Assembly (NCBI GenBank): GCA_037134915.1 | Contig: JBAXLJ010000004.1 | Coordinates: forward strand, 1-38,701 | Reading direction: 5' to 3' | Source: Candidatus Falkowbacteria bacterium | GTDB taxonomy: Bacteria; Patescibacteriota; Patescibacteriia; Patescibacteriales; UBA12465 | Length of the DNA: 38,701 nt | Shown here: positions 12,897 to 36,570 of the stretch, piece after piece | How positions within the stretch are numbered: position 1 is the first letter of the stretch | Layout: every line of letters starts with the position of its first letter | The notes under the pieces: model-generated | What the model was told of the DNA's origin: nothing | Databases searched by the model: none | The model's input: only the letters and a program-made list of their open reading frames with translations | Made by a program: the position numbers and the translations under genes

Positions 12897-12968
12897 TTAA
12901 TTAAAGTTTTAAAGATTTTAGGCGGGACTCCTGGCCTTAATTAATCTCTAAAGCGTTAGCAATTTAGT

Positions 12969-15026
12969 ATGCCCGAAATCATCACTCAAATTCGTAAGCG
13001 GTCCGGAGACATTGTTAGTTTTGATCAGAATAAAATCACTAAAGCAATCAAAAATGCTCAAGAAGCGATTGATGCCCCGGATGATAAATTGGCCGAAGAA
13101 CTGAGTGCGGAAATTGCTCAGCGAATTGCTAAACACTTTCATCATAATACTATTCCTGCCGTGGAAGAAGTTCAGGATATTGTTGAAGAAACTTTAATTG
13201 AAAAAAAACAGATTGCCCTAGCTAAGACTTATATTATTTATCGTGATCAACACCGACAAATAAGAGACATTAATAAAGGGACTTCGGATGAAAAGTTAAT
13301 GCAGGATTATTTGGGCCGAGCTGATTGGCGCCTCAAAGAGAACAGCAATATGAGCTTTTCGGTTCAAGGTTTAAATAACTATATTGCCTCAGCGGTTTCG
13401 GCTCGTTACTGGCTTAATAAACTTTACCCAGAAAACATCAGGGCTGCTCATGTGAGCGCTGATTTACATATTCATGATTTAGGATTGCTCGCTCCTTATT
13501 GCTGTGGCTGGGACCTTAAAGACTTGCTGATCAAAGGTTTTTGCGGAGTCTCTGAAAAAGTTCAAAGCAAGCCACCAAAACATTTCCGTAGCGCTTTGGG
13601 TCAAATTGTTAATTTTTTCTATACGATGCAGGGCGAAGCCGCTGGGGCTCAAGCTTTTTCTAATTTTGATACTTATTTATCACCCTTTATCCGCTACGAT
13701 CATTTAACTTACAAAGAGGTGAAGCAAAGCCTTCAGGAATTCATGTTTAATGTTAATGTGCCGACTCGGGTTGGTTTTCAGACTCCGTTTACTAACGTCA
13801 CTTTAGACGTTACGCCATCTAAATTAATTGGTGAAGAGAATGTGGTTATTGGCGGCGCGACGATGCCTGAACAGTATAAAGATTTTCAAGCGGAAATGGA
13901 TATCTTTAATCAAGCTTTTGCCGAGGTGATGCTTGAAGGTGATTCGACTGGGAGAGTTTTTGGCTTCCCAATTCCCACCTATCAGATTGATAAGAAATTT
14001 GACTGGGACCGGGAATGTTTAAAACCAATGTGGGAGATGACTGCTAAATATGGGGTTCCTTATTTTTCCAATTTTGTTAATTCGGACATGGACCGCGATG
14101 ATGCAAGATCGATGTGTTGTCGTTTAAGACTTGATAACCGTGAACTTAGAAAACGTGGCGGTGGTTTATTTGGCGCTAATCCTTTAACTGGTTCTTTGGG
14201 TGTTGTAACTATTAATTTAGCTCGCTTAGGCTACTTATCTGAAAATAAAGATGACTTTAAGAAGCGCTTAACTAACTTGATGGAAATTGCGAAAGAGAGT
14301 TTAGAAATTAAGCGTAAAGTGGTGGAAAAATTTACTGACGACGGACTCTATCCTTATTCTCGATTTTATTTGCACGATATCAAGGAGCGCTTTGGTTCTT
14401 ATTGGCAGAATCACTTTAACACTATCGGTATAAATGGCATGAATGAGGCGGTTCTTAATTTACTGGGCCACGACATTTCAACTCCCGAGGGTCATGATTT
14501 TGCAGCGGAGATTTTGGAATATATGAGAGACAAGATGTTAGAATTTCAAGAGGCCAGTGGCAGTCTATACAACCTAGAAGCAACTCCTGGTGAAGGCTGC
14601 ACCTATCGTTTCGCTAAAAAAGATAAAGAAGTTTATCCAGAAATTATTTGTGCAAACGATAAAGCTTTTAAAGAAAGTGGCACTCCGCCTTATTACACTA
14701 ATTCCAGTCACTTGCCAGTGGGCTTTACTAATGATATTTTTACCGCCTTGGATTTACAAGATGATTTGCAAGTTAAATATACCGGCGGCACCGTGCTCCA
14801 TGGTTTCTTGGGTGAAAGAATTAAGGATGGCGAAGCGACTAAGAAATTAGTTCATAAGATTATCGATAATTATAAATTGCCATACTTTACCATCACGCCA
14901 ACTTTTTCGGTCTGTCCTAAACACGGATACTTATCAGGGGAACATAAGTATTGCCCGAAGTGTGATGAAGAAATAGGTTTTTCTCCAGAAAACGATGTGA
15001 TGGTTCAGCGATTAGCCAATACTTAA
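12969..15026 (+). CDS. nrdD: Anaerobic (class III) ribonucleoside-triphosphate reductase, large part lacking the glycyl-radical loop
   Basis: N-terminal ATP-cone, HIHDL, YCCGW, SMCCRL, EATPGEG, YTGGT and CPKHGY..CPKC zinc site; no RVxG motif before the stop. Confidence 0.93.
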   Translation: MPEIITQIRKRSGDIVSFDQNKITKAIKNAQEAIDAPDDKLAEELSAEIAQRIAKHFHHNTIPAVEEVQDIVEETLIEKKQIALAKTYIIYRDQHRQIRDINKGTSDEKLMQDYLGRADWRLKENSNMSFSVQGLNNYIASAVSARYWLNKLYPENIRAAHVSADLHIHDLGLLAPYCCGWDLKDLLIKGFCGVSEKVQSKPPKHFRSALGQIVNFFYTMQGEAAGAQAFSNFDTYLSPFIRYDHLTYKEVKQSLQEFMFNVNVPTRVGFQTPFTNVTLDVTPSKLIGEENVVIGGATMPEQYKDFQAEMDIFNQAFAEVMLEGDSTGRVFGFPIPTYQIDKKFDWDRECLKPMWEMTAKYGVPYFSNFVNSDMDRDDARSMCCRLRLDNRELRKRGGGLFGANPLTGSLGVVTINLARLGYLSENKDDFKKRLTNLMEIAKESLEIKRKVVEKFTDDGLYPYSRFYLHDIKERFGSYWQNHFNTIGINGMNEAVLNLLGHDISTPEGHDFAAEILEYMRDKMLEFQEASGSLYNLEATPGEGCTYRFAKKDKEVYPEIICANDKAFKESGTPPYYTNSSHLPVGFTNDIFTALDLQDDLQVKYTGGTVLHGFLGERIKDGEATKKLVHKIIDNYKLPYFTITPTFSVCPKHGYLSGEHKYCPKCDEEIGFSPENDVMVQRLANT

Positions 15027-24404: not shown

Positions 24405-24475
24405 TCGGGGATCGTCTAATGGTAGGACAGCGGCCTTTGAAGCCGTCGATCTAGGTTCGAATCCTGGTCCCCGAG
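24405..24475 (+). tRNA. tRNA-Gln(UUG), CCA not encoded; anchor of the cassette array
   Basis: TCGGGGA/TCCCCGA acceptor stem, GCGGC-CTTTGAA-GCCGT anticodon arm and GGTTCGAATCC T-arm. Confidence 0.96.
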
Positions 24476-24480
24476 CAAAT

Positions 24481-24513
24481 AAAAAATAACGCTAATTTTA
24501 GCGTTATTTTTTT
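24481..24513 (+). terminator. tRNA-Gln terminator
   Basis: AAAAAATAACGCTAA/TTAGCGTTATTTTTTT. Confidence 0.85.
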
Positions 24514-24650
24514 ATATAATTTTTGACAACCCGAACCAATTTTAATATATATTAAAATCAAACTTTATTTAATTGACACAATGACTTACTTGGTGCTAAT
24601 TTTTGTTTATAAAATAGTAATATTAACAAATTAATATAGGAGGAATAATA

Positions 24651-26408
24651 ATGAAACAAGGAATTTTTGAAGTTTTTAGTTTTGGAGATCTTGGACTGAA
24701 AGCTAACGATTTAAATCGTTACTCTAACCTAATTACTGGTCTAGACATGATAATTCCAGAAGGGGTTGTAATTGCGACTGGTATTTTTGATCTGTTGCTG
24801 GAAAGAATTGACTTTGAAAAACCAGTTGAAGAAATTAAAAAAAATGCTTGTCCGATTTTTCTGCGTCCTATCAATGAAAATATTTTAGATAATTTGGAAA
24901 TCGGTGTTCCTTATGCTATTCGTTCTTCGGCTCTTTCAGAACGTGGTGGAACTGGTATTTATAAAACGGTATTTTTGGTACTAACTGGAAACAGGGAAAC
25001 TGATTTACTAAATCTTTGGCATTGTGAACTATTAGTTTATGCCAGTGAGTTTACCGGTGATGCTAAAGCGTGGAGAGCGAAAGATAATGCTCCAATTGGT
25101 ATGGCTATTCTTATTCAACAAGTTATTGGTTTTAATCTTGATAGTAATTTCTTGCCACCACTGTCTGGGACTGCTTATACTTCATATAACGGTTTGCCAA
25201 CAGTTAGAGCCGTCATTGGTCTAGGAACTAAAGCCGTGGATGGTAGTGGTCTTATATTTAATTATTCGCCAGAAGAGTGGCTTCATTTTCAAAGAGAAAT
25301 GTGGGATCAAGAATTTGCCGATGCTATTTCCGCGGAAAGTGCAATATCTAAAATTAATACTCATTATGAAGATATTCAAAGTAGGGTTTTTTATCAATTC
25401 GAAACATTTATAAGTCTGTTTGATAAATTAACTGAGCTTAAAAAAGAAGGTGAATTTTATTTGGAATGGGTGATTTTTGAGAACAAAATTTATATTGTTC
25501 AATGTGCCTCTTTTGAAGATCGTCTTCCTGGAGATGTCACCTTTAACAATACCGATTACTTCCTTCTTCTTAGTGGAGGGGATGTTTTAAATTCTGGTAA
25601 TGCCACGTGTAAATGTATTGTTTACGCTCATGAGTGGACACCAGATGTATCTCGATCAATAGAGGATTTAAACAGAACTAATTTAGACTATCTTTTAGTT
25701 GTTCCTCAAGATGCCCTGTCACTCGTTGCTGATATTAATAACCCAGGGCAGAGACTTGCTTTCCGACATTTTAGCAATGCTCTGGCCGTCGTAGAAAAAC
25801 AAAGGACTTATTCTCAGAATCAAGTTGCTATGATGTTACAGCTTGGCAAAAGCTTGGCTGACCATTCTTTTGGAACGGGTGCTTCTCATTTTTCCCAGCT
25901 TTGTAATAGGGCAAAAACCCTCTTTATTGGAGGAGAATTTGATGAAACACCTTTGTTTACTTTGCCAGGTGGAATGAGCTATCGCGATAACATTGGTATA
26001 ACTATTTGGAATACCACCGCAGAGGTGGTAGTTAATGCTGTTAAAAAGGAAGGCTTTGTTTATATTTCCAAGAAGTCTAAGAAAAATAATTACTCTCTTA
26101 GTGAAATAAAAATTTGGACTAATCTGTTAAGACAAGCAGCTAGCGTTCTTGAATCAGAAAAATCATTAATGGCCAATGATTTTTATGTCATTCATTATGC
26201 TATTATTCCACCAATGAATTTAACTGAATTTGATCCTTTAAAAGTAGATCAAGAAATTATTGAAGAGTTTGGTGGTATGCCTGAAATTATTAGGAGCTTG
26301 CAATTTGTAATTACGAATGGAAGAACATATATCGACTTTTATACTTGGAGCAATGGTTTAAAGGTCTATCTTGAAGAATTGCTTTTGAGTCTTACTCAGA
26401 GTAAATAA
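24651..26408 (+). CDS. Cassette 1: PEP/pyruvate-binding (PPDK_N ATP-grasp)-like protein
   Basis: AIRSSALSE, GIYKT, MAILIQQ, SGTAYT, GLGTKAVDG and EWVI..IYIVQC motifs; AGGAGG RBS; TTGACA at 24573. Confidence 0.75.
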   Translation: MKQGIFEVFSFGDLGLKANDLNRYSNLITGLDMIIPEGVVIATGIFDLLLERIDFEKPVEEIKKNACPIFLRPINENILDNLEIGVPYAIRSSALSERGGTGIYKTVFLVLTGNRETDLLNLWHCELLVYASEFTGDAKAWRAKDNAPIGMAILIQQVIGFNLDSNFLPPLSGTAYTSYNGLPTVRAVIGLGTKAVDGSGLIFNYSPEEWLHFQREMWDQEFADAISAESAISKINTHYEDIQSRVFYQFETFISLFDKLTELKKEGEFYLEWVIFENKIYIVQCASFEDRLPGDVTFNNTDYFLLLSGGDVLNSGNATCKCIVYAHEWTPDVSRSIEDLNRTNLDYLLVVPQDALSLVADINNPGQRLAFRHFSNALAVVEKQRTYSQNQVAMMLQLGKSLADHSFGTGASHFSQLCNRAKTLFIGGEFDETPLFTLPGGMSYRDNIGITIWNTTAEVVVNAVKKEGFVYISKKSKKNNYSLSEIKIWTNLLRQAASVLESEKSLMANDFYVIHYAIIPPMNLTEFDPLKVDQEIIEEFGGMPEIIRSLQFVITNGRTYIDFYTWSNGLKVYLEELLLSLTQSK

Positions 26409-26422
26409 CCTTATTAAATTAG

Positions 26423-26454
26423 AACTGCCGTTGATAATAATGGCAGTTTTTTTT
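26423..26454 (+). terminator. Cassette 1 terminator
   Basis: AACTGCC...GGCAGTT followed by a T-run. Confidence 0.8.
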
Positions 26455-26501
26455 ATTTATCAAATTTGGGTACAAAAACATTACTATTTAAAACAAAATA
26501 A

Positions 26502-26529
26502 GTTCGCATTTCCTCCTTTAACCCGAGCA
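26502..26529 (+). repeat. Array repeat R1 (most divergent)
   Basis: GTTCGCATTTCCTCCTTTAACCCGAGCA, same length and flanks as the other repeats; TTGACA at 26533. Confidence 0.7.
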
Positions 26530-26602
26530 GTATTGACAAAAAGTATGCCTTATGGTATACTTTTTGTTGTAAAAGAACTTTAAAAATTCACAAGATAAAT
26601 TT

Positions 26603-26702
26603 GTCACAGCCAAAAGATGGCTAATATTTAGCCATTTCCTGACTGTGACCAATGATGGCCATAGTTCCCACTTACGGACAGTAAGTACAAACTGGGCTAT
26701 CA
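26603..26702 (+). ncRNA. Candidate structured 5' leader RNA (two long hairpins)
   Basis: Pairings GTCACAG/CTGTGAC enclosing ATGGCTAA/TTAGCCAT, and TGATGGCC/GGCTATCA enclosing ACTTAC/GTAAGT. Confidence 0.45.
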
Positions 26703-26721
26703 GCTCATAATAATTTAAGTC

Positions 26722-27330
26722 ATGAAGTATAATAAAGTAAGTTTCGGAACTTCCGAAGCAGTTTTCAACAAATTAGGCGGGGAGCGAGGAATAACAGATT
26801 TTCTCTCGGGAAAAACGCAGGTGGTAAAATCAGACAAAAACTTTCCAACACTGATGACCATAGAAGTGGGATTATATGACGAAAATGATTTGATTAAAAT
26901 TATCAAAAAAGATAAAAAGATCAAAACTGATGAATCAAATAATATACTTGATTGGCCGCCATTGTTTGATTTTGACGAAAGGACAAGTCTTGAACTCGTT
27001 GTTGTTACTCCGGAAGAACTTGGTTTTGAGCCAATGTTTGAATCTTGTGCTAATTATGAAAATATTTGCGAAAGAGCAAATAGATATGGGTTAGATGAAT
27101 GTCCTTCTGAACTCGGAATGTTACTATCTTTGCCACAATATGGATTAAAAAATAAATTTTATATTGTAGCATCTAAAATTTTAAGGGATCAGAAAGGGAA
27201 AAAACATTTATTAGTTCCATGGTTTGAAGAAGATGGTAAATGTGAACTTAAGGCATGGGAAGTTGAACAAGGTAAAAGCTTCCATACAGGTTTTCATTTT
27301 ATATTTGTTCGACATAACGTTCAAATTTAA
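26722..27330 (+). CDS. Cassette 2: hypothetical protein
   Basis: 202-aa ORF between promoter and terminator (GGCTGTTAGT/ACTAACAGCC-T6, 27349-27380). Confidence 0.8.
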   Translation: MKYNKVSFGTSEAVFNKLGGERGITDFLSGKTQVVKSDKNFPTLMTIEVGLYDENDLIKIIKKDKKIKTDESNNILDWPPLFDFDERTSLELVVVTPEELGFEPMFESCANYENICERANRYGLDECPSELGMLLSLPQYGLKNKFYIVASKILRDQKGKKHLLVPWFEEDGKCELKAWEVEQGKSFHTGFHFIFVRHNVQI

Positions 27331-27391
27331 AAGATTTATTATTCATTTGGCTGTTAGTTTTATTACTAACAGCCTTTTTTCTTACAAAAAA

Positions 27392-27419
27392 GTTCCAATC
27401 TTATCCCGGTCTCCGAGCA
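27392..27419 (+). repeat. Array repeat R2
   Basis: GTTCCAATCTTATCCCGGTCTCCGAGCA; TTGACA at 27422. Confidence 0.95.
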
Positions 27420-27497
27420 CGTTGACAAAAAACATACCTTGTGGTATGTTTTTTGATAGTTAAACATATTGTAGAACTTTAAAAAATAAATAAAACC

Positions 27498-27671
27498 ATG
27501 GACGCTTTTTTAAATTTTTTAGATTTGCATCACGCAATTATCATCGCAGTTTTGTTTGGATTACAAGGATTTGCTTTAATTATGCAGGGTATTTACCTTA
27601 TTCAGTTTGGAAGACTCTTAAAAAAACCAAAGAAATATCTTCATTCTAAACAAATTTTACGAACATGGTAA
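27498..27671 (+). CDS. Cassette 3: 57-aa membrane peptide (absent from the ORF track)
   Basis: MDAFLNFLDLHHAIIIAVLFGLQGFALIMQGIYLIQFGRLLKKPKKYLHSKQILRTW. Lies between the cassette promoter and a GCAA-loop terminator (27718-27749). Confidence 0.65.
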   Translation: MDAFLNFLDLHHAIIIAVLFGLQGFALIMQGIYLIQFGRLLKKPKKYLHSKQILRTW

Positions 27672-27760
27672 TTCGTAAAAATTTATTTAAAAGAATTCTA
27701 ATGACAAAAATCTATCCAAAGGGCTTGGTTGCAAAATCAAGTCTTTTTTCTTACAGAAAA

Positions 27761-27788
27761 GTTCCAATCTTATCCCAGTCCCCGAGTA
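27761..27788 (+). repeat. Array repeat R3
   Basis: GTTCCAATCTTATCCCAGTCCCCGAGTA; TTGACA at 27791. Confidence 0.95.
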
Positions 27789-27871
27789 CGTTGACAAAAT
27801 AGCACATTTGGTGCTATTTTTGTTTTATTAAATGGTAATATTAACAATTTAAAGTACAGGAGGATATAATT

Positions 27872-28072
27872 ATGGCAAAACCAGTTGTTAAAAGTTTTAA
27901 CGAAATTGTAGTAAATTTGGAATGGCTTCGTGAAGTTGTTGAGATGGTAGACAGAAAGTCGTATTCTTGTGGTGGTCTATGCACTTGCGTGAACGGTCAA
28001 GATGCAATGAACAAGCTAACATCAAAAATATTGACAATGGATGTTGATGAGCTTAAAAAAGAGGCTCGTTAA
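27872..28072 (+). CDS. Cassette 4: 66-aa hypothetical protein
   Basis: AGGAGG RBS, CGGLCTC cluster and terminator at 28090-28115. Confidence 0.75.
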   Translation: MAKPVVKSFNEIVVNLEWLREVVEMVDRKSYSCGGLCTCVNGQDAMNKLTSKILTMDVDELKKEAR

Positions 28073-28126
28073 CGTCTAAGTTTAGTAAGAAGTGAATCAG
28101 ACGATTCACTTTTTTATTACAAAAAA

Positions 28127-28154
28127 GTTCCAATCTTATCCCAGTCTCCGAGCA
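28127..28154 (+). repeat. Array repeat R4
   Basis: GTTCCAATCTTATCCCAGTCTCCGAGCA, followed by hairpin AAACAGCCCT/AGGGCTGTTTTT (28160-28186). Confidence 0.95.
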
Positions 28155-28248
28155 GTTTTAAACAGCCCTTTTTCAGGGCTGTTTTTAATAGGTGGTTTAT
28201 GACTTTGGAGCTGTATGTTATAATCAAATAACATTTAAACAACAATTT

Positions 28249-28698
28249 ATGTATAATCCAATAAAAAATAACTTAATTATTGAGTTGCACGTCCCCGATT
28301 TAGACTTGGTAAAATCTTTTTATTCAAAACTGGGTTTTAAGATTTCCTTGGACGACAATCTCGACGAGAAAAATCTTGGTTATTTAACTATGACCAGGGA
28401 AGATAGTCTGGGAAATACTATGCTTAATTTTTATGGTGGAGACAAAAGAATTTACGACCAATCATTTTTTAAGAAATTCCCTCAAGACACAAATAGAGGT
28501 TATGCCACGGAAATAACTATAACTACTAGCGATATTGATAGATTATATAAAGTTGCTTCCGAAAATTTAAAAACCAACATAGTTCGTGATTTAAAAGAGT
28601 TAGAAGACCATGGCCATATTTGGAAAGATTTTCGCATGGTGGACCCATTTGGTTTTTATATAAGGTTTACAGAGCTAATTGATTGGGGGCAAAAGTAA
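28249..28698 (+). CDS. Cassette 5: VOC/glyoxalase-bleomycin resistance family protein (ATG 28249)
   Basis: IELHVPDLD...FYSKLGF and DFRMVDPFGFYIRF motifs; TGtTATAAT upstream. Confidence 0.85.
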   Translation: MYNPIKNNLIIELHVPDLDLVKSFYSKLGFKISLDDNLDEKNLGYLTMTREDSLGNTMLNFYGGDKRIYDQSFFKKFPQDTNRGYATEITITTSDIDRLYKVASENLKTNIVRDLKELEDHGHIWKDFRMVDPFGFYIRFTELIDWGQK

Positions 28699-28702
28699 GC
28701 TT

Positions 28703-28730
28703 GTTCCAATTTTATCCCGGTTTCCGAGCA
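28703..28730 (+). repeat. Array repeat R5
   Basis: GTTCCAATTTTATCCCGGTTTCCGAGCA, 4 bp after the VOC stop; TTGACA at 28734. Confidence 0.95.
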
Positions 28731-28812
28731 ATGTTGACAAAAAATATACTAATGAGGTATATTTTTTTATTGATCTTTAAAATACATTATTTAATTCTAA
28801 AACATTATATAA

Positions 28813-29421
28813 ATGGAAGATGATAAAAAGGATGTTTCTGAAATCCTAAATAAGCATAAAGCGCTCATGATTAAAAATGGTATGGCCGAGGAGGCAGCCG
28901 AAGAAATTCTAGTTTCATTTAAGGCTAGATTAGAAATCATTCCGCCTAATTATCCAATACCAAAGTGCAGCGATTCGGTATATAATGACCCAGTTCTGGA
29001 CTGGATTAATCAATATGCTTTATCGTCCGCAACAGCAAATAGACAGTATACAGTTTTTACTTCTGTTGAAGATTTAAAAAAGGTAGTTGAATGTGGACTA
29101 GGGAAAAAATGTTATGTCCGTGATTACTCTGGTTATCTCGTTCAAGATGGTACAATTTTCTTTATTTTTGTTTATTGTGCAGATTTTAAACAGATGAACA
29201 ATCAGAGCTATAAAATTATTTTTTCATCTTCCCAGCAATCTCAGGACATATTTATCCAAGGTCAAGCATTCAGTGGTTCATATTTTGTTGATGTCGATGC
29301 AATTAGATTGAATAAATTTTTAAAAGTAAAAGAGCTTATTATTGATGATTTTGATTTTGATTTTGAGGTTAGAAAATCATGGGAAGAAGCGTTGATGATA
29401 TTTAGGAGTTTATTTGTTTAA
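28813..29421 (+). CDS. Cassette 6: hypothetical protein
   Basis: 202-aa ORF; terminator GGTCGC/GCGACC-T6 at 29436-29465. Confidence 0.8.
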   Translation: MEDDKKDVSEILNKHKALMIKNGMAEEAAEEILVSFKARLEIIPPNYPIPKCSDSVYNDPVLDWINQYALSSATANRQYTVFTSVEDLKKVVECGLGKKCYVRDYSGYLVQDGTIFFIFVYCADFKQMNNQSYKIIFSSSQQSQDIFIQGQAFSGSYFVDVDAIRLNKFLKVKELIIDDFDFDFEVRKSWEEALMIFRSLFV

Positions 29422-29479
29422 GCATGAGTTCTTATGGTCGCCGAATTAAGTAAGCGACCTTTTTTATTATCCAAAAACC

Positions 29480-29507
29480 GTTCCAATCTTATCTCATTCT
29501 CCGAGCA
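29480..29507 (+). repeat. Array repeat R6
   Basis: GTTCCAATCTTATCTCATTCTCCGAGCA; TTGACA at 29510. Confidence 0.93.
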
Positions 29508-29583
29508 TATTGACAAAAAACATACCTTATGGTATGTTTTTTAATAGTTAAAATTTTATTGTCGAACCTTAAAATAAAGTATA

Positions 29584-29883
29584 ATGAAATCAATTCAATT
29601 AATTGTAAAGAATAGTGATAACTCTTGTTGGATAACATTTGAAAAGGAAGACACCTTGCTATTTTTATTACCACTAGGAACAATTTTTGAAGCCGTGGAA
29701 AATTACTGTGGTGCAGTGGTAAGTCATTATTACAACGAGAAAGACTCCAAATTCGTCACAAATATCGAAGTTACCAGTATTTTGCGCTTTCAGCTGGAGT
29801 ATTTTAGAGAAGAGCTCTTAAAAAATGGCTGGGTGATTAAATACGAAGACAAATATTTAATCTTTCGTGATGGATGCAAATAA
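29584..29883 (+). CDS. Cassette 7: hypothetical protein
   Basis: 99-aa ORF; terminator AAACCCTGA/TCAGGGTTT at 29902-29934. Confidence 0.75.
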   Translation: MKSIQLIVKNSDNSCWITFEKEDTLLFLLPLGTIFEAVENYCGAVVSHYYNEKDSKFVTNIEVTSILRFQLEYFREELLKNGWVIKYEDKYLIFRDGCK

Positions 29884-29947
29884 TACAATCATTTTTTAAT
29901 TAAACCCTGAGACAAAATAGTTTCAGGGTTTTTTATTTATTAAAAAA

Positions 29948-29975
29948 GTTTTAATCTTATCCCAGTCTCCGAGCA
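29948..29975 (+). repeat. Array repeat R7
   Basis: GTTTTAATCTTATCCCAGTCTCCGAGCA, followed by hairpin AAATAGACTAA/TTAGTCTATTT (29983-30009). Confidence 0.93.
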
Positions 29976-30096
29976 CACACATAAATAGACTAATTTTAGT
30001 CTATTTTTTGCTATAATATTGACTCTATTACCATCTAATGTTAAGGTTTTTTCTCCAGTGAACAGATGATCTGGGTCTTTAAAAATTACATAACTA

Positions 30097-30774
30097 ATGA
30101 AAGCATTATTAGAAACATGTACACCTGGTCAGGTAAAACGAATTATGTCTATAATGGCCGATTCAATACCGACGAAATTGCCTAAAGAAGTGGCCACAAT
30201 GTTAATTGAAGTTCAATTAAAAAAAATGTTGGGCAAACTTTGGGAAGAGGCAGAAAAAGAATTATGGAAGTCTCTAATGAAAACCTTTGACGTAGTTTTT
30301 GTCGCAGAGATGGAGCTTAACGGGAATTTTTCATTTAATGATTATGTGGCAGAAGATCAGGGAAAGTTGATTGGCATACAATGGTCGAGTTCTCGTGTTT
30401 CCGGCTACCCTAAGGCGGAAATTTTCGGAAAGAAGCAGGCTGTCATGGCGAAAGTCACTAAGACATCTTCTGTGGAAGAATTTTGTCTGCACGTGGCTTT
30501 AAATAGAGGATATTTACCAGGCAGAGAAGGGCTAATTCAATTTTATAATACATACTCAGAAAAGATTTCAGAATTAGTTCCGTCGTTTGGTTGGTTGGTG
30601 GCACCCGTGCAAAGTCATAAAGTGCCTTCTTCATTGAATGATGATAATTTTGGTATTATTCCTACTATGCATAAGGAAATTTCCGATGGACAGGGGTTTA
30701 TTATGACAAGTACTATTCAATTGTTGCAACGCGGGCAGTTTGTCCTTTTTTTTACGGATGCTGTAAAAAAGTAG
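30097..30774 (+). CDS. Cassette 8: hypothetical protein
   Basis: 225-aa ORF; terminator at 30793-30822. Confidence 0.8.
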   Translation: MKALLETCTPGQVKRIMSIMADSIPTKLPKEVATMLIEVQLKKMLGKLWEEAEKELWKSLMKTFDVVFVAEMELNGNFSFNDYVAEDQGKLIGIQWSSSRVSGYPKAEIFGKKQAVMAKVTKTSSVEEFCLHVALNRGYLPGREGLIQFYNTYSEKISELVPSFGWLVAPVQSHKVPSSLNDDNFGIIPTMHKEISDGQGFIMTSTIQLLQRGQFVLFFTDAVKK

Positions 30775-30833
30775 AATTACAGATTAATTAAGAAAGCTCA
30801 ATTAAAAAAGTTGGGCTTTTTTCTTATAAAAGA

Positions 30834-30860
30834 GTTTTAATCTTATCCCGGCCCCGAGTA
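30834..30860 (+). repeat. Array repeat R8 (27 bp)
   Basis: GTTTTAATCTTATCCCGGCCCCGAGTA; TTGACA at 30863. Confidence 0.92.
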
Positions 30861-30935
30861 TGTTGACAAAAAAGTATATTTAGTGCTATTTTTGTTTTAT
30901 AAAATAGTAATATTAACAACTTAAACATATAGCAA

Positions 30936-31514
30936 ATGGAAGCAAGTTATGACACGAAGGAAGGGATTGCTAAATCCATTGGAAGTTTAGAAGAATTGGC
31001 AAAACTTTTAACAAAGAGACGTTATGGATATTTTTGGAAAGACGAAGAACTGAAAGAATTTTTTATTCTTGGGAGATATCGGTTGGATAAAAGAGGGAAT
31101 ATAGACAGGCTAACCGGAAAGATACCGAAAGAAATATTTCCAGATTTCCCCGACGTGATGACAAGTGAAGATCTAATTGACTATATTGAGAATAACCCAG
31201 GAGGGATAACAAGAGACGATTTTAAATATGGTACTTTTAAATATGAAAGCATGGTAATAGAATCGGGCTTAAAATGTCCTTCATGCGGGTTAGTTTGGGA
31301 TATAAGCAACGTTCATGAAGCCTTGATATACCGAAATTGTGAATGGATTTCGTTAGATAACTTTGTCGGACAAACTTTAGATGAAGTTATTAAAAAGTTA
31401 AACGAAAAGCATGATGGTATATACGACTTTGGTCCATCTGATCATGGAGACGGTGAAGTTATCGCCCAGCCCAATCAGTCATTATTGACTTCAATAATCA
31501 GACTTTCTCATTAG
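30936..31514 (+). CDS. Cassette 9a: hypothetical protein with one CxxC
   Basis: 192-aa ORF containing CPSC. Confidence 0.75.
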   Translation: MEASYDTKEGIAKSIGSLEELAKLLTKRRYGYFWKDEELKEFFILGRYRLDKRGNIDRLTGKIPKEIFPDFPDVMTSEDLIDYIENNPGGITRDDFKYGTFKYESMVIESGLKCPSCGLVWDISNVHEALIYRNCEWISLDNFVGQTLDEVIKKLNEKHDGIYDFGPSDHGDGEVIAQPNQSLLTSIIRLSH

Positions 31515-31539
31515 AAGTAAATCTCCAAATTAACATATA

Positions 31540-32175
31540 ATGAAAATAAAAAAAGGAACTACCCGCACAACCTTTATTTTTGATTACGTGGTTGTTAAAA
31601 TTCCAGCAATTAACTTTATAATAGTATTTAAAGAAATTTATTATTCACTAAAACTGGCCATGCCCGTAATTAGAAAACAAGGCTTCAAGAAATATTATCT
31701 AAAAAAGAAAGCAATAAAAAGAAGAGCGACGGAAAAAGAAAAAGCCCATATACAAAAAGAATCAGAAGAGTTGGGCTTAGAACTTATCCCTTGTAAGTCT
31801 TACGAGATTTTTAGTATAAAATACTTGATGTTTTCTGGAATTATGGCCAATTGGAATGAATATCTTTTCTACAGAGAAACTAAAAATTTATTTGTACTAC
31901 CAACCTATTTATCTATATTTGGTCTAATTAATTTTCAAAAAAGAGGGAAAGAGATATATTTTTGGAATAGCGACGAGATTAGAGAGTATATTTGTATTAA
32001 TTCTGTTGATGAAGATCAGATTTTTTGTGATTCTCACACCTTCGCCAAAAAAGAGAACTTCTGTTTAGATGGTGATAAGCTAAAAATGCTTGATTATGGC
32101 AGTAGACATGTTCACAATTTCTTAAGATTAAATGGCGACAAGCTATTTAATAACTTCATAAAACCACCAGTGTAA
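31540..32175 (+). CDS. Cassette 9b: putative minimal protein-kinase-like protein
   Basis: GTTR..VVVKIP, N..E, DSH..KENF and MLDYG appear in kinase motif order; terminator 32161-32190 overlaps the stop. Confidence 0.55.
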   Translation: MKIKKGTTRTTFIFDYVVVKIPAINFIIVFKEIYYSLKLAMPVIRKQGFKKYYLKKKAIKRRATEKEKAHIQKESEELGLELIPCKSYEIFSIKYLMFSGIMANWNEYLFYRETKNLFVLPTYLSIFGLINFQKRGKEIYFWNSDEIREYICINSVDEDQIFCDSHTFAKKENFCLDGDKLKMLDYGSRHVHNFLRLNGDKLFNNFIKPPV

Positions 32176-32201
32176 AATTGGTGGTTTTTTAATACAAAAA
32201 A

Positions 32202-32229
32202 GTTCCAATTTTATCCCAATCTCCGAGCA
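32202..32229 (+). repeat. Array repeat R9
   Basis: GTTCCAATTTTATCCCAATCTCCGAGCA; TTGACA at 32232. Confidence 0.93.
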
Positions 32230-32304
32230 TGTTGACAAAATAGCACATTTAGTGATATTTTTTGTTTATTAATTAGTAGTATTCACAATTTAAAAAAATA
32301 GAGA

Positions 32305-32670
32305 ATGAGAAATCTAGTTGAAAGCTTCAACCCCGAGAACCTTGACCCCCAGATTAATTGGCTAAACGATTTGTTGGCAGAATTTTTGAAAGTCAACTTA
32401 ACCCTAAAAATGGCCTTTGATGATTATTTTATTGCCCGCGAGGCTGAAAGCTATGAAGAAGGCGTTAAGAAGTTTAATTTAGAGCGCTGGAGTAGTTGCG
32501 GTAGCGACAGCAACCCAACCTTAGAAATAGTTGAGATAAAAGGGGAGCTAAAATTTGCTTATTCTGCTTACGGCACGCTGGGGCCATTAAAATCCAAAGA
32601 TTATAATCGCGCCATGATAAAAAGTATTGTGGCAAAATTCTTTGCCGAGCCACTTTCTTTTTTTAAGTGA
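32305..32670 (+). CDS. Cassette 10: hypothetical protein
   Basis: 121-aa ORF; terminator at 32691-32720. Confidence 0.78.
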   Translation: MRNLVESFNPENLDPQINWLNDLLAEFLKVNLTLKMAFDDYFIAREAESYEEGVKKFNLERWSSCGSDSNPTLEIVEIKGELKFAYSAYGTLGPLKSKDYNRAMIKSIVAKFFAEPLSFFK

Positions 32671-32764
32671 TTATAAAAATGTTTCACAAGAACCGCCAGT
32701 GTAAAATTGGTGGTTTTTTTATATTATTTAAAATTATTTGAGATATGATAGTCATATAAAAATT

Positions 32765-32798
32765 AAAAACCCACAGTCTTTTTGACTGCGGGTTTTTT
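32765..32798 (-). terminator. Terminator for the convergent gene 32815-33246
   Basis: AAAAACCCACAGTC/GACTGCGGGTTTTT. Confidence 0.75.
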
Positions 32799-32814
32799 AA
32801 AATCAAATTTGATA

Positions 32815-33246
32815 TTAAAAGGGGAGGTAATCTTCAAAGAATTTCTCTAGTCCAGTCGGGAGAAAAAATTCTTCAGATATCGGTGTTAGCAAGCACCTAA
32901 CAGCCCCTTTACCAACTGCTGGACCAAAATAAGAACCAATCCAGGCATCTTCATCCTTCTTAAGTTCATAAGAGATAATGTCGCTCCTTCGTTCGTATTT
33001 CTTTTTAAAGCGGATGATGTTTCCTTCAAGGGACACATCTGTGAGCACTGAAGGGCCGTAATTATCAGATAAAGCGCCTACGCCATCATAAAAATTGTCA
33101 GTAAATTTAATTACTCCGGCAAACATTGTTCGAAAGGTTGCTGGTTGAATCTCAGCTCTTTCGCCAATTTCTGAGTCAAGGCTAATCCCAAGCATAAGGT
33201 TGTTTTGAAAGAAAATTCCATGAACAAGGTAAAGTCTGGTTTTCAT
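32815..33246 (-). CDS. Hypothetical protein
   Basis: 143-aa ORF with an upstream TTGACT and a cassette-like leader. Confidence 0.75.
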   Translation of the reverse strand: MKTRLYLVHGIFFQNNLMLGISLDSEIGERAEIQPATFRTMFAGVIKFTDNFYDGVGALSDNYGPSVLTDVSLEGNIIRFKKKYERRSDIISYELKKDEDAWIGSYFGPAVGKGAVRCLLTPISEEFFLPTGLEKFFEDYLPF

Positions 33247-33371
33247 TCTTTTGTTTTTAAAGGTTCGACAATCTATTTAACTGTGCTTATACTAAAATAA
33301 AACATTGATTTAGTCAATTAAAGATCAATTATCATGTTTTCGCAAATTAAAGTATGTTATAGTGTTCGTGT

Positions 33372-34103
33372 ATGAACAAAACAAAATTAAAAACAGTGAC
33401 CCTGCTAGGGATAGACTGTCTTGATGTTAAAAGACTGTGTTTGGCAATGGAAATTTGCCAAACTAATTTTGAGTTTGCGGATGTCAAAATATTAACTTCT
33501 TTAAATCCTGGTAGTAGTGAAAATATTATAAAAATTAAAGCTATTAACTCTACTGAAGAATATTCCCATTTTATTATAAATGATTTATATAAATACGTTG
33601 ACACGGAGCAGGTCTTAATAGTTCAGTATGATGGTTTTATTCTTAATCCAAATGCCTGGACTGATGAATATTTAAAATATGATTATATTGGCGCGCCTTG
33701 GTTGGTAGCTGATTGGTCAGTGAATAATTTTGACTTTCCGGCGGAATTATTAGGAAAGTTTGTGGTCGGTAACGGTGGATTTAGTTTGCGGAGTAAAAAA
33801 TTACTTAACCTTACCGCCAAGTTGTCCCAAGACGATGAAATCAAAAGATATCACCCTGAAGACGTATCGATTTGTGTGTATTATCGTAAATTGCTTGAAG
33901 ATAATGGAATTAAATTTGCTCCAACAATCCTAGCTAAACAGTTTAGTTTTGAATCCGAGGATATGGAGAATTATTCCTGGGATAATCAATTCGGGTTTCA
34001 TGGGCTTAATTGGACAGATATTTCTAAATGGAGTAAGTCTCATCCCGAGTATAAAATAGATAATCCCGCCACCAAAAAAACTGAAAGATTAAAGTGGCTT
34101 TAG
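33372..34103 (+). CDS. DUF5672-family (glycosyltransferase-like) protein
   Basis: QYDG, YDYIGAPW, GNGGFSLRS, PED, FSFE and FGFH motifs. Confidence 0.82.
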   Translation: MNKTKLKTVTLLGIDCLDVKRLCLAMEICQTNFEFADVKILTSLNPGSSENIIKIKAINSTEEYSHFIINDLYKYVDTEQVLIVQYDGFILNPNAWTDEYLKYDYIGAPWLVADWSVNNFDFPAELLGKFVVGNGGFSLRSKKLLNLTAKLSQDDEIKRYHPEDVSICVYYRKLLEDNGIKFAPTILAKQFSFESEDMENYSWDNQFGFHGLNWTDISKWSKSHPEYKIDNPATKKTERLKWL

Positions 34104-34191
34104 TTTTTATATAGCCAATCATTCTCTCTAGGAAAATTTACAAAATAGCATTTTTATGCTATTTTTGTTGTATATAATTAATTATAAATTT

Positions 34192-34584
34192 ATGAATAAA
34201 GTTACACATTTTGAATTTCCTTGGGATGATAAGGAACGAGCTAAATCTTTTTACCAAAATGTTTTCGGATGGAAGCCTTTTGAGTGGGAACAATTTGGTT
34301 ATACTAGTTGGCAAACGGGTCCGGTTAATGAAAAGATGCAACCAACTGAAACAGGGTTTATTAATGGCGGTTCCAGCAAGCGCGACCCCGAGATGCCTTA
34401 TCCAATGTTCTATATCGATGTCGAAGATATAGATGTGGCGCTTGAAAAGATTGTTGCTCAAGGAGGAGTGATTGCCCGTCAAAAAACCCCACTCGGAGAA
34501 AATGGCGAAATGGGATTTTTGGCTTGGTTTAAAGATTCGGAAGGGAATATCCTGGGTTTATCTCAATATAAAAAATCGGTTTAA
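34192..34584 (+). CDS. VOC/glyoxalase family protein (ATG 34192)
   Basis: VTHFEF...FYQNVFGW, INGG, YIDVEDID and FKDSEGNILGL. Confidence 0.9.
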   Translation: MNKVTHFEFPWDDKERAKSFYQNVFGWKPFEWEQFGYTSWQTGPVNEKMQPTETGFINGGSSKRDPEMPYPMFYIDVEDIDVALEKIVAQGGVIARQKTPLGENGEMGFLAWFKDSEGNILGLSQYKKSV

Positions 34585-34673
34585 CAACCAAGTTTTTGGT
34601 CGCAAGCTTTAGAATTTTTCGGCTTCTGTCTTTAGGGTGATATATGTTATATTAAATTCACAACTGAATAATC

Positions 34674-34780
34674 TTTTTATAAAGAGTGTAGCGAGGGAAC
34701 TAGCCCTAAGACCTGCCAGCAACCCCAAAAGAATCCATTTGGAAGGTGCTACTTCTAGCCCAATAAGGGAAAGATAAAGG
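34674..34780 (+). ncRNA. SAM-I (S-box) riboswitch
   Basis: TTAT.AAGAG..GAGGGAACTAGCCC..GA..CAGCAACC..AAGGTGCTA.TTC..GAAAGATAA matches the S-box consensus in order. Confidence 0.85.
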
Positions 34781-34800
34781 CCGATTTTCTATCTCTAAAT

Positions 34801-34835
34801 AAAAACTCTTTCCTTTTTTGGGAAGAGTTTTTTTT
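34801..34835. terminator. Riboswitch expression-platform terminator (bidirectional)
   Basis: AAAAACTCTTTCC/GGGAAGAGTTTTT; the 5' arm can alternatively pair with GGGAAAGA (34767-34774). Confidence 0.85.
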
Positions 34836-34873
34836 ATTATTAATTAAATTATAAAATTATATTAGAAACAGTT

Positions 34874-35233
34874 TTAGGTTAATTTATTTTCGACGTCTTT
34901 TTTTAGATTTTCGGTAATTTCTAGAGCCTTGTCATACTCTCCACTTCGCGCTGCGATTCGGGCGCTAATAAAGTCATTAAAAGCCGCTTCGTTAATTACA
35001 TGACTTACTTTATTGTTTTGACCAATTATCTTTTTCCAGGCCTGGTAGTCACTATTTTCGAAAGTGCTTAAAAGTTTTTCCTGTTTTTCTTGGGACTCTC
35101 TAGAAGCTTTTTTATTATTTAAATTCAATTCAAAATCCTGATCGGAATCTGAGAAATAATTAGTCATTATTCCGGCTGATAAAATCATTGTCAAGAAAGC
35201 AATATTTATCGCCACCTTTTTGTATTTCTGCAT
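34874..35233 (-). CDS. Hypothetical exported/membrane-anchored protein (ATG 35233 preferred)
   Basis: N-terminal basic and hydrophobic segment followed by a helical domain. Confidence 0.72.
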   Translation of the reverse strand: MQKYKKVAINIAFLTMILSAGIMTNYFSDSDQDFELNLNNKKASRESQEKQEKLLSTFENSDYQAWKKIIGQNNKVSHVINEAAFNDFISARIAARSGEYDKALEITENLKKDVENKLT

Positions 35234-35371
35234 AATTATTTTTTTAATTCTACTTAGTACAGGGTAATACGTTAGAAAATAATATTTCTTCACGTCCTAA
35301 TCTTGGTATTCGTTTTTTATTTAATAAGAGGTATAATTTAAAAGTATTCCGAAAAATAAAGTAATAATTTT

Positions 35372-35806
35372 ATGACCGACTTAAAAAATGATTTAAAAAC
35401 TATTGAACCAACTTGGCACGAAAAGCACGTGGTAGCTTCCACTGTGGGTGAAAAAATAGCTGATAAAACGGCTAGTTTAATGGGTTCTTGGAAATTTATT
35501 ATCTTTCAAACTATCTTTGTGATTCTGTGGATGTCTTTAAATGTGGTTGGTTTTATTAATCATTGGGACGCCTATCCTTTTATTTTGCTTAATTTAATTT
35601 TCTCGACTCAAGCGGCTTACGCGGCGCCAATCATTATGATGGCCCAAAACCGTCAGAACGATCGTGACCGTTATCAAGCTAGAGAGGATTATTACACCAA
35701 TGTTAAGGCAAAAAAAGAAATAGAGGCGCTGCAGAAATCTTTAACTAGAATTGAGATTGATAAATTAGATAAAATCATTGATTTGTTGAGTAACTACTCA
35801 AAATAG
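35372..35806 (+). CDS. DUF1003 family membrane protein
   Basis: GSWKFI, DAYPFILLNL and QAAYAAPIIMMAQNRQ. Confidence 0.92.
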   Translation: MTDLKNDLKTIEPTWHEKHVVASTVGEKIADKTASLMGSWKFIIFQTIFVILWMSLNVVGFINHWDAYPFILLNLIFSTQAAYAAPIIMMAQNRQNDRDRYQAREDYYTNVKAKKEIEALQKSLTRIEIDKLDKIIDLLSNYSK

Positions 35807-35898
35807 ACCGACTAGTAATTAAAGCTTATAAGTTGACAAAACAAAGATAATTGTGTTAAATTTCGTTTAGACTATACGAACCTTAAAAATAAAAAGCC

Positions 35899-36486
35899 AT
35901 GAGAAAATTACAGTCGTCTGCGCCTGAATATCGGAAGATATGTCAGGAGTTTGTTTTTTTAATTAGGGAAGCCTTAAAAAAGGCCCCTAAAAAAGGTGAT
36001 CAGAATTTTTATAGCCACTTAGCTAATAACTATTTGGTTAATAGTGATTTAAAAATAATGCGTCCTTTAGCTAAAGAGAATTGGCCGGTGGAATTCAGTT
36101 GGCTTTCGGCTAGCCCGGGACTTTATTGGCCGGTCATGACTAGAAGTCTTTATGTTAGAAGTATTTTTGATTCGCCTTTTATCGCGACGCCACTTTATTT
36201 TGGCTATGCAGTGGTCTCTGGCGAGCTTAAGCGCACCGCTTTTTATGTTGCTGAATTACTGTTTAATCAGAGTCAGGTCGTAATCGATCCTTTAGCCTAT
36301 CTTAATGAGGTTAAACCGGATTATTATCTTGGTTGCCGGGTTGACAAAAAAGATTTGGAAAAATATCTACGCGAAAATGTTGATCCTCTGGAATCCTTGG
36401 CTAGTCGAAGGAGTTTTAGTCGGTGGGAGCTTCGTCATAAAGCCTCCCATCACGCTTCTTTTATGGATTATGATCTGGGTTGGTAG
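35899..36486 (+). CDS. Hypothetical protein
   Basis: 195-aa ORF with its own TTGACA promoter and terminator (36492-36524). Confidence 0.72.
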   Translation: MRKLQSSAPEYRKICQEFVFLIREALKKAPKKGDQNFYSHLANNYLVNSDLKIMRPLAKENWPVEFSWLSASPGLYWPVMTRSLYVRSIFDSPFIATPLYFGYAVVSGELKRTAFYVAELLFNQSQVVIDPLAYLNEVKPDYYLGCRVDKKDLEKYLRENVDPLESLASRRSFSRWELRHKASHHASFMDYDLGW

Positions 36487-36570
36487 AAAATAAACGTGGT
36501 CTTATAACTAGACCACGTTTTTTTGTGACTCTTTATCATATTTTATTTTTATGCTATTATCATCAGTAAT

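Follow-up and report, generated by a model that had tools for sequence, protein, structure and literature searches.

By which route are genes gained in bacteria of the candidate phyla radiation (CPR, Patescibacteria), whose genomes are tiny and whose routes of gene gain are little known? The question is raised by a 38,701-nucleotide stretch of DNA from a Candidatus Falkowbacteria bacterium (referred to as the window), which comprises bases 1-38701 of contig 4 in a genome of 980,682 bp, nine contigs and approximately 37.5% G+C. In this window, nine direct repeats of 28 nucleotides (nt), all on the + strand, divide the DNA behind the gene for tRNA-Gln(TTG) into ten co-oriented cassettes. A first description made from the letters alone (the original prediction) had interpreted the region as a tRNA-anchored array of small, non-autonomous gene cassettes between repeats that resemble the 3' end of a tRNA gene. 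Our analysis supports this description, and no recombinase was found inside the array of the window. We regard the structure as real and well supported, and a mechanism based on large serine recombinases (LSRs) as plausible. In our judgment, the locus is probably an array of recombinase-less cassettes, similar to the staphylococcal cassette chromosome (SCC) and to integrons, which would be mobilized by LSRs in trans with the tRNA end serving as attB.

The consensus 28-mer GTTCCAATCTTATCCCGGTCTCCGAGCA was found seven times with at most three mismatches, compared to zero times in 100 shuffled sequences. The two remaining copies, R1 and R8 (the latter with a 1-nt deletion), are degenerate and were recovered by a repeat search and an nhmmer profile. 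Taken together, these searches confirmed the start positions and the common strand that had been given for all nine repeats (Table 1). The earlier alignments also held: the last 17 nt of R2 match the end of the tRNA gene at 15 of 17 positions, and GTTC.AAT can be aligned as well if 5 nt are inserted. The full repeat unit is longer than 28 nt. From left to right, it contains the T-run of a terminator, CTTACAAAAAA, the core, 1-3 nt, an A-rich stretch (often TTGACAAAA), a hairpin and a T-run, and the hairpin next to the A-rich stretch is variable in sequence. Three cores with their flanks did not fold better than shuffled sequences (z 0.6 to 1.0).

Several other identities of the repeat were considered and abandoned. 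A search of Rfam with the repeats returned no family at E<=1 (the other arrays described below gave tRNAs only), and the interpretation as an RNA element was dropped on this ground. An origin from a retro-element or a tRNA primer was dropped because the repeats keep the genomic ...G-CA and not CCA. Use of the 28-mer as a Xer/dif-like site was rejected since the core, judged by eye, has no 11-6-11 dyad. A miniature inverted-repeat transposable element, suggested by inverted GTTCCAA/GAACTTT ends, was dropped since these ends amount to only a 7-nt match in AT-rich DNA. The exact degenerate core was present in 0 stretches of viral contigs, so that no phage attP was identified.

The array region is not an assembly artefact, a possibility that the original prediction had raised against itself. 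A single 65.9-kb contig from the probable source run (X1) covers the whole array at a depth of 40. Low-depth contigs from three other studies (X2-X4), which represent the same strain as X1 and have identical junctions, bridge the junction between the tRNA gene and cassette 1 as well as R1, R4, R7 and R8, and no differences were found.

Four further arrays are present in the genome besides that of the window, one behind tRNA-Gln(CTG) and three with a repeat that mimics tRNA-Ser, five in all. Together, they account for about 3% of the DNA of the genome, as estimated from coordinates. All 12 copies of the Gln-type repeat in the genome lie at two tRNA-Gln loci, nine in the window and three after tRNA-Gln(CTG) (contig 2: 252201-252272). 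The Ser-type family (consensus GTTCCAACTACGTCCCACTCTCCCCGCA) has 15 copies in its three arrays, two of which start directly behind tRNA-Ser(TGA) and tRNA-Ser(GGA). The proposed link to tRNA-Gln thus stands for the Gln-type repeat, but tRNA-Gln is not special as an anchor. Both families share the order GTTCSAAY, 5 nt, 3' strand of the T-stem, 3' strand of the acceptor stem, discriminator G, and CA. This is the end of the anchor tRNA gene (genomic ...GCA, not CCA) with five extra bases past the T-loop motif, for instance CTTAT in one core. Types of right and left arms are common to the Gln and Ser arrays, and the acceptor part tracks the anchor. At two loci from relatives, L144 and L156, tRNA-Gln has the end ...TCTCGCAGCA (...GCAGCA), and the terminal bases of the cores are ...CCAGCA or ...TCAGCA in place of ...CCGAGCA. 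Every one of the cassette open reading frames (ORFs) in the five arrays is on the strand of the tRNA. The design of the arrays is general and anchor-specific.

The Gln-type pattern was present in 12 of 36 searched genomes of the same family, but in 0 of 24 from other families of the order. In G003, G009, G013, G015, G028, G029 and G031, the repeats lie 3' of a tRNA-Gln and in the same orientation. With the gene just upstream, FtsX, as an anchor, we collected 80 metagenome loci. tRNA-Gln(TTG) was called in 67 of them, and one or more repeats followed further downstream in at least 15 of these 67, a lower bound because many loci are short. The repeats listed for these loci are all on the strand of the tRNA. 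An exact 26-mer of the core is present in G003, which belongs to the same genus, and in G029 from another genus. The core pattern was also seen in two contigs (L088 and L059) with the titles Saccharimonadales (three copies) and Absconditabacterales (two copies), which could reflect a wider spread in the Patescibacteria or mis-binning.

The cassette content turns over completely between species. Locus L104 has an FtsX protein that is 98% identical to that of the window (DNA identity 84.6%). Homology between the two loci ends 10 nt past the tRNA gene and is back only at an S-adenosylmethionine (SAM) riboswitch (34674-34780). None of the window cassette proteins occurs in the islands of the congeneric loci L104-L109. 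Repeats are present in the L106 island and absent from those of L104, L108 and L109. Content and order of the cassettes therefore differ between relatives, and the identical order that would have spoken against the original prediction was not observed. Homologues of four cassette genes of the window were found in other genomes, where their positions differ. A homologue of the cassette 6 gene (28813-29421) is the first cassette behind tRNA-Gln in G009 (72.5% nt identity). The G003 array contains two homologues of the cassette 7 gene (29584-29883) and one of the first cassette 9 gene (30936-31514; 83.7% nt identity over 30855 to 31511). A homologue of the ORF at 34156-34584 lies right behind a type-1 repeat core in G013, a different genus (81.9% nt identity).

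Site lengths were compiled for 2.68 Mb of sequence, which comprised our genome and every locus fetched. Among Gln-type sites, 14 distinct tRNA ends measured 23 nt and 27 distinct cores measured 28 nt, with nothing at 24-27 nt and one 37-nt match that is probably due to chance. For the Ser type, there were two distinct 23-nt sites (one tRNA-Ser end and one likely chance match) and seven distinct 28-nt sites, with one outlier each at 27, 29, 32 and 38 nt. Core and tRNA end have the same distal GTTCSAA and the same proximal part (T-stem, acceptor, GCA), which are set 5 bp wider apart in the core. In serine integrases, according to the part of the study by Rutherford et al. (2013; PMC3783163) that deals with site geometry, the motif bound by the zinc-ribbon domain is 5 bp nearer to the crossover in attB than in attP. 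The difference between 23 and 28 nt follows the same rule and equals the attB-versus-attP half-site spacing of LSRs. This rule suggests reading the tRNA end as an attB-type, and the cores as an attP-type, left half-site.

Of 41 family genomes, 28 encode LSRs, and a single genome of roughly 1 Mb can have as many as six. We examined 27 LSR ORFs and found 17 that converge on a tRNA gene and either overlap it or directly adjoin it; the tRNAs concerned are Ser (five), Ala (four), Glu and Gln (two each) and Arg, Tyr, Asn and His (one each). In this family, integration at tRNA genes is mainly the work of LSRs. At the FtsX loci, tblastn identified LSRs convergent with tRNA-Gln in 13 of 80 cases. The junction of one LSR lineage, 49% identical to LSR2 of our genome, reads ...CCCCGAGCA|TTGAAGAAAAATCGC..., and the right side is the 3' end of the LSR gene. 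To the left of the TTGAAGAAAAATCGC arm, L164, L129 and L170 have a genuine tRNA-Gln, and G013 and G030 have a 28-nt core, GTTCGAAC(T/A)TCGT(C/T)C(A/G)CGACCCCGAGCA, with the same junction in both cases. A second LSR of G013 likewise abuts a core. The LSR elements of G013 and G030 (6-8 kb) contain a Rep gene (REP_ORF2-G2P) and have their right end in another core. The core at position 253791 of contig 2 in our genome is identical to the G013 core at 28 of 28 positions. The original prediction had compared the repeats to the displaced tRNA fragments that tyrosine integrases leave behind. They instead form a distinct class of sites, with a fixed +5-bp spacing and with a link to LSRs in relatives.

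The genome itself encodes two LSRs, LSR1 and LSR2, with Resolvase, Recombinase and Zn_ribbon_recom domains. Their best NCBIfam models are CcrB and XisF, with scores below the equivalog cut-offs. The LSR2 gene occupies 223542-225029 of contig 1. The region between tRNA-Ser(GCT) and a Ser-type array (contig 1: 208463-225029) contains both of them, together with two ORFs of about 860 amino acids (aa) and ORFs that by eye resemble C5- and N6/N4-DNA methyltransferases. We consider this region a probable island for restriction-modification or defence that is carried on LSR elements. The 3' end of LSR2 was also considered as a Ser-type junction, but the likeness extends over only about 15 nt (CCCGCA|GATTGTCAA) and is too weak for assigning a target. 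A fragment on the - strand of contig 2 (171087-171600), in two pieces, resembles LSR1 residues 280-449 with 44-58% identity and is likely an LSR pseudogene. Also on contig 2, 16 C-terminal LSR codons read antisense at 253781-253828 were for a time taken for an LSR-derived left arm; this was withdrawn since the match is only the shared core plus neighbouring bases. In G013 (contig 1: 352410-378294; L195, L204, L039), three LSR elements are piled up 3' of tRNA-Asn(GTT). The first LSR overlaps the tRNA gene, and the second and third each lie behind a Gln-type 28-nt core, with no tRNA-Gln nearby.

A second type of repeat was seen in G001, which belongs to the same genus. One LSR of G001 has as its 3' terminus, in sense, a type-2 partial tRNA-Gln repeat, in which GGATTCGAAGTTTATGC...GGTAAATCC precedes an exact copy of the tRNA-Gln end. 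Type-2 partial-tRNA repeats also occur in arrays of other genomes and as 88-nt duplications behind tRNA-Val and tRNA-Tyr of our genome. In these two cases (tRNA-Val TAC, - strand, contig 1: 29212-29286; tRNA-Tyr, - strand, contig 3: 173014-173098), an exact copy of at least the last 17 nt lies about 88 nt downstream. The copies are preceded by the common motif AGAGGGATTCGAAGTTTATGC...GGTAAATCC, the same design as at the 3' end of the LSR gene in G001 (L196). They probably represent remnants or empty units of a different LSR lineage.

From these observations, we conclude that LSRs acting in trans most likely built the array and may continue to reshuffle it. The tRNA-Gln gene would provide an attB-type left half-site with its 3' end, and the 28-nt core at the end of each cassette would be an attP-type left half-site recognised by LSRs. 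Strand exchange would take place where the core ends on the right, inside GAGCA or adjacent to it, because alternative left partners meet one LSR arm at the same base and because attL-like and attR-like pairs retain their own core variants. The DNA to the right of the junction would terminate the upstream gene or tRNA, and would probably promote the next gene. A cassette would accordingly comprise an arm with terminator and promoter, a gene, a terminator and a core. Its insertion at the tRNA would give tRNA|arm...core|previous arm, which matches the appearance of the array. Single cassettes may move as circles, and integration may regenerate a usable attB at the tRNA, such that the arrays would grow from the tRNA side. 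A more specific version, which we put forward tentatively and with some doubt, is a serine-recombinase counterpart of the integron in Falkowbacteria-like CPR bacteria, in which certain tRNA genes offer their 3' ends as permanent attB sites (the role of attI) and free one-gene cassettes carry an attP-type half-site mimicking this tRNA end at +5 bp (the role of attC), along with a terminator and a promoter of their own. In such a system, the left half-site alone would set identity, so that attB would be regenerated with each insertion. With LSRs encoded elsewhere as the driving enzymes, the arrays would then gain and lose cassettes at the tRNA side, and the system would be a general platform for gene capture in organisms with genomes of about 1 Mb.

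A number of points weigh against LSR-driven growth of the arrays. R1, the repeat nearest the tRNA, is the most degenerate, a poor fit to simple growth with the newest unit first. Canonical LSRs do not recombine attL-type sites, though serial insertion at a tRNA would require such reuse, and a canonical LSR site has two recognisable half-sites. Across 36 distinct junctions, sequence conservation is limited to the left 28 nt. The right arms vary and are not conserved beyond the A-rich stretch (often TTGAMRAAAA); they have a generic terminator form, as behind 53 genuine tRNA-Gln genes. Neither dyad symmetry nor a right-hand zinc-ribbon motif nor an inverted GTTCSAA at the expected distance was found at the junctions, and the bases right after GCA vary between copies. 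Neither LSR1 nor LSR2 abuts a core; their distances from tRNA-Ser(GCT) are 4.6 and 15 kb, and the region around them is rich in methyltransferases. No LSR was found next to the core subtype of the window. Downstream of 12 LSRs at tRNA-Gln, neither the predicted far-end core (attR) nor a copy of the tRNA end was found, in a search that reached about 9.8 kb in L150, L114 and L148, the other loci being short and those of the linked lineage too short. The original prediction had envisaged a recombinase whose presence co-varies with the arrays. LSRs track the pattern weakly, with 10 of 11 Gln-pattern-positive versus 12 of 20 pattern-negative genomes in a set that is related and not independent. Finally, excision, circle or empty-site junctions with support were not seen in the contigs of X1-X4. 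The comparison of runs used assembled contigs only, and the few joints that go back or skip are of low depth, have a short side or can be attributed to the paralogous array on contig 2. These data are neutral on cassette mobility, speaking neither for nor against it.

Some of these points would fit the view that the cores are fossil attR sites, the units decayed LSR (or other) elements once integrated at the tRNA, and the single cassettes never mobile. Complete LSR-plus-Rep elements of 6-8 kb are bounded by cores in G013 and G030, R1 and R8 are degenerate, and no mobility was seen in the run contigs. However, the 27 repeat junctions in the five arrays contain no remnant of an LSR or Rep gene, and such remnant-free arrays argue against simple decay of full elements. 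The units are also very regular, with one gene each and their own arm and terminator, and the 28-nt cores are far better conserved across genera than the cassette genes, which points to selection on the site or recent spread. Fossil sites are therefore in our view an unlikely explanation. We find it distinctly unlikely that the arrays are due to homologous recombination only. The units of about 90 nt (terminator, core, promoter arm) would in this case be portable blocks of homology and insulation, swapped by RecA-type exchange after DNA uptake, with cores that no site-specific enzyme reads today. The arms are indeed mosaic (at contig 2: 255080, the left arm known from R6 occurs together with the right arm known from R7), one right arm occurs behind both a Gln core and a Ser core, and conservation is confined to the core, with arms that resemble plain terminators and promoters. 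Yet homologous recombination leaves unaccounted for the precise +5-bp design found in two independent tRNA families, the co-variation of core and anchor tRNA, and the LSR genes that adjoin cores and tRNA ends at one and the same base. A 28-nt block with mismatches is also generally considered short for RecA-dependent exchange.

The repeats could also be attachment sites of tRNA-targeting tyrosine integrases that phage-like elements supply in trans, in the manner of tycheposons, whose tandem elements have partial tRNAs between them, as stated in the pertinent passages of a preprint (10.1101/2020.12.28.424599). A Xer-like protein is present in all 41 family genomes sampled, and some have an additional integrase of 380-395 aa. 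At 10 of 14 fetched loci of these extra integrases, the catalytic-domain match and a tRNA gene are no more than about 300 nt apart. One such locus in G009 (contig 54; L090, reversed 7465-13303) is an integrative element of about 5.7 kb at tRNA-Ser(TGA), with a 394-aa tyrosine integrase and, by eye, excisionase-like 83-aa and Rep-like 250-aa ORFs. Its exact 21-nt bounding repeat, TTCGAATCCCTCCCTCTCCGC, does not have the +5 design. Six array-bearing genomes (G000, G013, G015, G028, G029 and G031) have the Xer-like recombinase only, and no tyrosine recombinase was matched by tblastn in 154 loci, or 1.36 Mb, around arrays. The core, moreover, has neither dyad symmetry nor a hairpin. The only tyrosine recombinase of our genome, on contig 3 beside an FtsQ-like gene, is Xer-like by NCBIfam and scores 78.9 bits with the integron-integrase model (cut-off 265). 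Tyrosine recombinases do target tRNAs in this family, but are unlinked to the 28-nt cores; they were rejected as the array enzyme, and we consider this explanation quite improbable. Hardly credible to us is a purely regulatory role of the core as an operator or UP-like site 5' of the -35 box that co-regulates an accessory regulon. Although the core ends 1-3 nt from a perfect TTGACA in seven of the nine window copies, R4 and R7 have no TTGACA. The cores are also confined to tRNA-anchored arrays, imitate the anchor tRNA and co-vary with it, and in relatives they are fused to the ends of LSR genes and not to promoters.

Within the array of the window, each unit contains one ORF on the + strand, except for two ORFs in the unit at 30861-32201, as had been predicted (Table 1). 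The cassettes also have promoter-like and terminator-like signals of their own. A perfect TTGACA with a -10-like hexamer at 16-18 nt was found in seven of nine right arms, R4 and R7 being the exceptions, and terminator-like sites numbered 16 compared to 4.8+-2.2 in shuffled sequences. Promoter-like sites overall were only mildly enriched (47 versus 34.6+-6.4). The arm of cassette 3 folds at -12.6 kcal/mol (z -6.8). Of 40 array ORFs, 18 had a Pfam match and 22 did not (E<=0.01 for the window set, E<=0.001 for the other arrays). The matches were to PPDK_N, glyoxalase/Ble-like (weak), DUF5672, nucleotidyltransferase-like (two, both weak), MazG (two), DUF4202/HD, aldo-keto reductase, histidine phosphatase, DUF2178, SDR, NUDIX, GNAT, DUF397 and YrbL (weak). 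The glyoxalase/bleomycin-resistance-like match is that of the cassette 5 ORF (E 8e-4, below the Pfam cut-off).

Table 1. Features of the array and of the adjoining island in the window.
Feature	Position	Strand	Details
tRNA-Gln(TTG), array anchor	24405-24476	+	ARAGORN; Rfam RF00005, 64.4 bits; FtsE-FtsX-tRNA-Gln synteny conserved
Proposed attB-type left half-site	24455-24477	+	GTTCGAATCCTGGTCCCCGAGCA, 23 nt, T-loop to 3' end plus CA
Terminator-like hairpin 3' of tRNA	24481-24512	+	Same form as right arms of repeats
Cassette 1	24513-26501	+	Promoter-like module 24573-24634; ORF 24651-26408, 585 aa, PPDK_N ATP-grasp-like; terminator 26421-26450
R1	26502-26529	+	Degenerate core GTTCGCATTTCCTCCTTTAACCCGAGCA; nhmmer E=4.6e-12
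Cassette 2	26530-27391	+	Promoter-like TTGACA-17-TATACT 26533-26561; ORF 26722-27330, 202 aa, no Pfam match; terminator 27349-27374
R2	27392-27419	+	Consensus core GTTCCAATCTTATCCCGGTCTCCGAGCA; 0 mismatches
Cassette 3	27420-27760	+	Hairpin/promoter arm; ORF 27498-27671, 57 aa, membrane-like
R3	27761-27788	+	3 mismatches
Cassette 4	27789-28126	+	ORF 27872-28072, 66 aa
R4	28127-28154	+	1 mismatch
Cassette 5	28155-28702	+	GC-rich hairpin arm; ORF 28249-28698, 149 aa
R5	28703-28730	+	2 mismatches
Cassette 6	28731-29479	+	ORF 28813-29421, 202 aa
R6	29480-29507	+	3 mismatches
Cassette 7	29508-29947	+	ORF 29584-29883, 99 aa
R7	29948-29975	+	3 mismatches
Cassette 8	29976-30833	+	ORF 30097-30774, 225 aa
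R8	30834-30860	+	27 nt, one base missing; profile search
Cassette 9	30861-32201	+	Two ORFs: 30936-31514, 192 aa; 31540-32175, 211 aa
R9	32202-32229	+	3 mismatches
Unit 10, no repeat behind	32230-32723	+	ORF 32305-32670, 121 aa; terminator 32688-32718
Remainder of variable island	32724-36570		Genus-level synteny back from 36571
ORF in island remainder	32815-33246	-	143 aa
DUF5672-type gene in island remainder	33372-34103		
ORF in island remainder	34156-34584		142 aa

Some DNA is shared between islands. Paralogues of the DUF5672 type with 73.6% nt identity are present in both tRNA-Gln islands, beyond the array in the window and directly behind tRNA-Gln(CTG) on contig 2 (252462-253193). A leader of about 300 nt is 85.7% identical between a cassette of a Ser-type array (contig 1: 228583-228889) and one of the Gln-type array on contig 2 (254266-254568). 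It reaches the start codons of two different 149-aa ORFs, recurs in part in G013 (L193), and has no match in Rfam. The SAM riboswitch (RF00162, 62.4 bits, + strand) is located about 600 nt before the nearest downstream ORF on the + strand, and its surrounding 190 nt, with 93% identity to L104, are the sole DNA conserved between L104 and the window 3' of the tRNA-Gln gene.

The site design suggests a concrete and testable mechanism, in which the tRNA end is attB and a 5-bp-wider mimic is attP. The cassettes, mostly orphans and small modifying enzymes (MazG, NUDIX, GNAT, SDR, aldo-keto reductase, nucleotidyltransferase-like and glyoxalase-like), constitute a defined pool of niche genes. If LSRs do move the cassettes, this would be a second, independently evolved system of cassette capture beside integrons. 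It would also extend the SCC principle to tRNA anchors and single genes. The sites would then be natural serine-integrase sites in which one half-site sets attP/attB identity and which can be retargeted to different tRNAs, a property of interest for understanding, and possibly for using, serine integrases.

Comparison with known systems shows partial overlaps. In an island made by a tyrosine integrase, the integrase gene adjoins the tRNA and the repeats are exact partial tRNAs. This is the case for the G009 element but not for the window. Tycheposons of Prochlorococcus, as portrayed in the consulted passages of the preprint (10.1101/2020.12.28.424599), are closer in some respects. They form hypervariable islands behind tRNA genes of streamlined genomes, consist of tandem units separated by partial tRNAs, have integration and replication modules, and in a minority of cases carry LSRs. 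In contrast to our cassettes, they measure multiple kb, have their own, mostly tyrosine, recombinase and are bounded by plain partial-tRNA repeats; one-gene cassettes with a +5-bp mimic are not mentioned in these passages. The model for A118 and LI integrases, to the extent laid out in the sections cited above (PMC3783163), places the distal motif 5 bp closer to the crossover in attB, comparable to 23 versus 28 nt here. It shifts both half-sites, whereas conservation here is confined to the left half, and a variable arm of terminator-like form takes the place of the right half.

The resemblance to integrons, and to clusters of attC sites lacking integron-integrases (CALINs), lies in ordered, small, co-oriented and mostly single-gene cassettes of accessory or unknown function, in a repeat at the cassette end that resembles a recombination site, in one fixed adjoining site, and in arrays without an adjacent recombinase. 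Nevertheless, the array is not an integron. There is no IntI, and the sole tyrosine recombinase is Xer-like and located on another contig. The repeats are conserved in sequence without a hairpin or dyad, whereas attC sites are conserved in structure. Our cassettes have predicted promoter-like and terminator elements of their own, whereas integron cassettes are mostly promoterless and depend on the common Pc promoter.

A search of the full-text literature, which did not extend to paper supplements (those on tycheposons and SCC may list small cassettes), returned no description of such arrays. The original prediction that this is not a described system was nevertheless too strong. SCC arrays, according to the portion of the study in PMC11470126 that concerns them, are tandem cassettes made by LSRs behind a housekeeping gene, and some of the cassettes lack a recombinase and are mobilized in trans. 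LSRs of the Ccr/XisF type are available in this genome and lineage. As in SCC and SCCmec (CcrAB/CcrC), insertion occurs at the 3' end of a conserved gene, and tandem cassettes lie between direct repeats that copy the integration site, here the last 17 nt of the tRNA plus the T-loop motif. There are differences in anchor (tRNAs of two identities at five loci here, rlmH in SCC), in scale (0.34-2 kb and mostly one gene here, tens of kb in SCC), in the repeats (attP-type mimics at +5 bp here, plain copies of the target in SCC) and in host (here a CPR bacterium with a genome of about 1 Mb), and the mobility of our cassettes is inferred. Two tRNA identities as anchors, the one-gene scale, the +5-bp mimic repeats and the CPR host thus set the array apart from known systems. 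By analogy with the SCC arrays described in that portion of the study, it would appear to work most like them.

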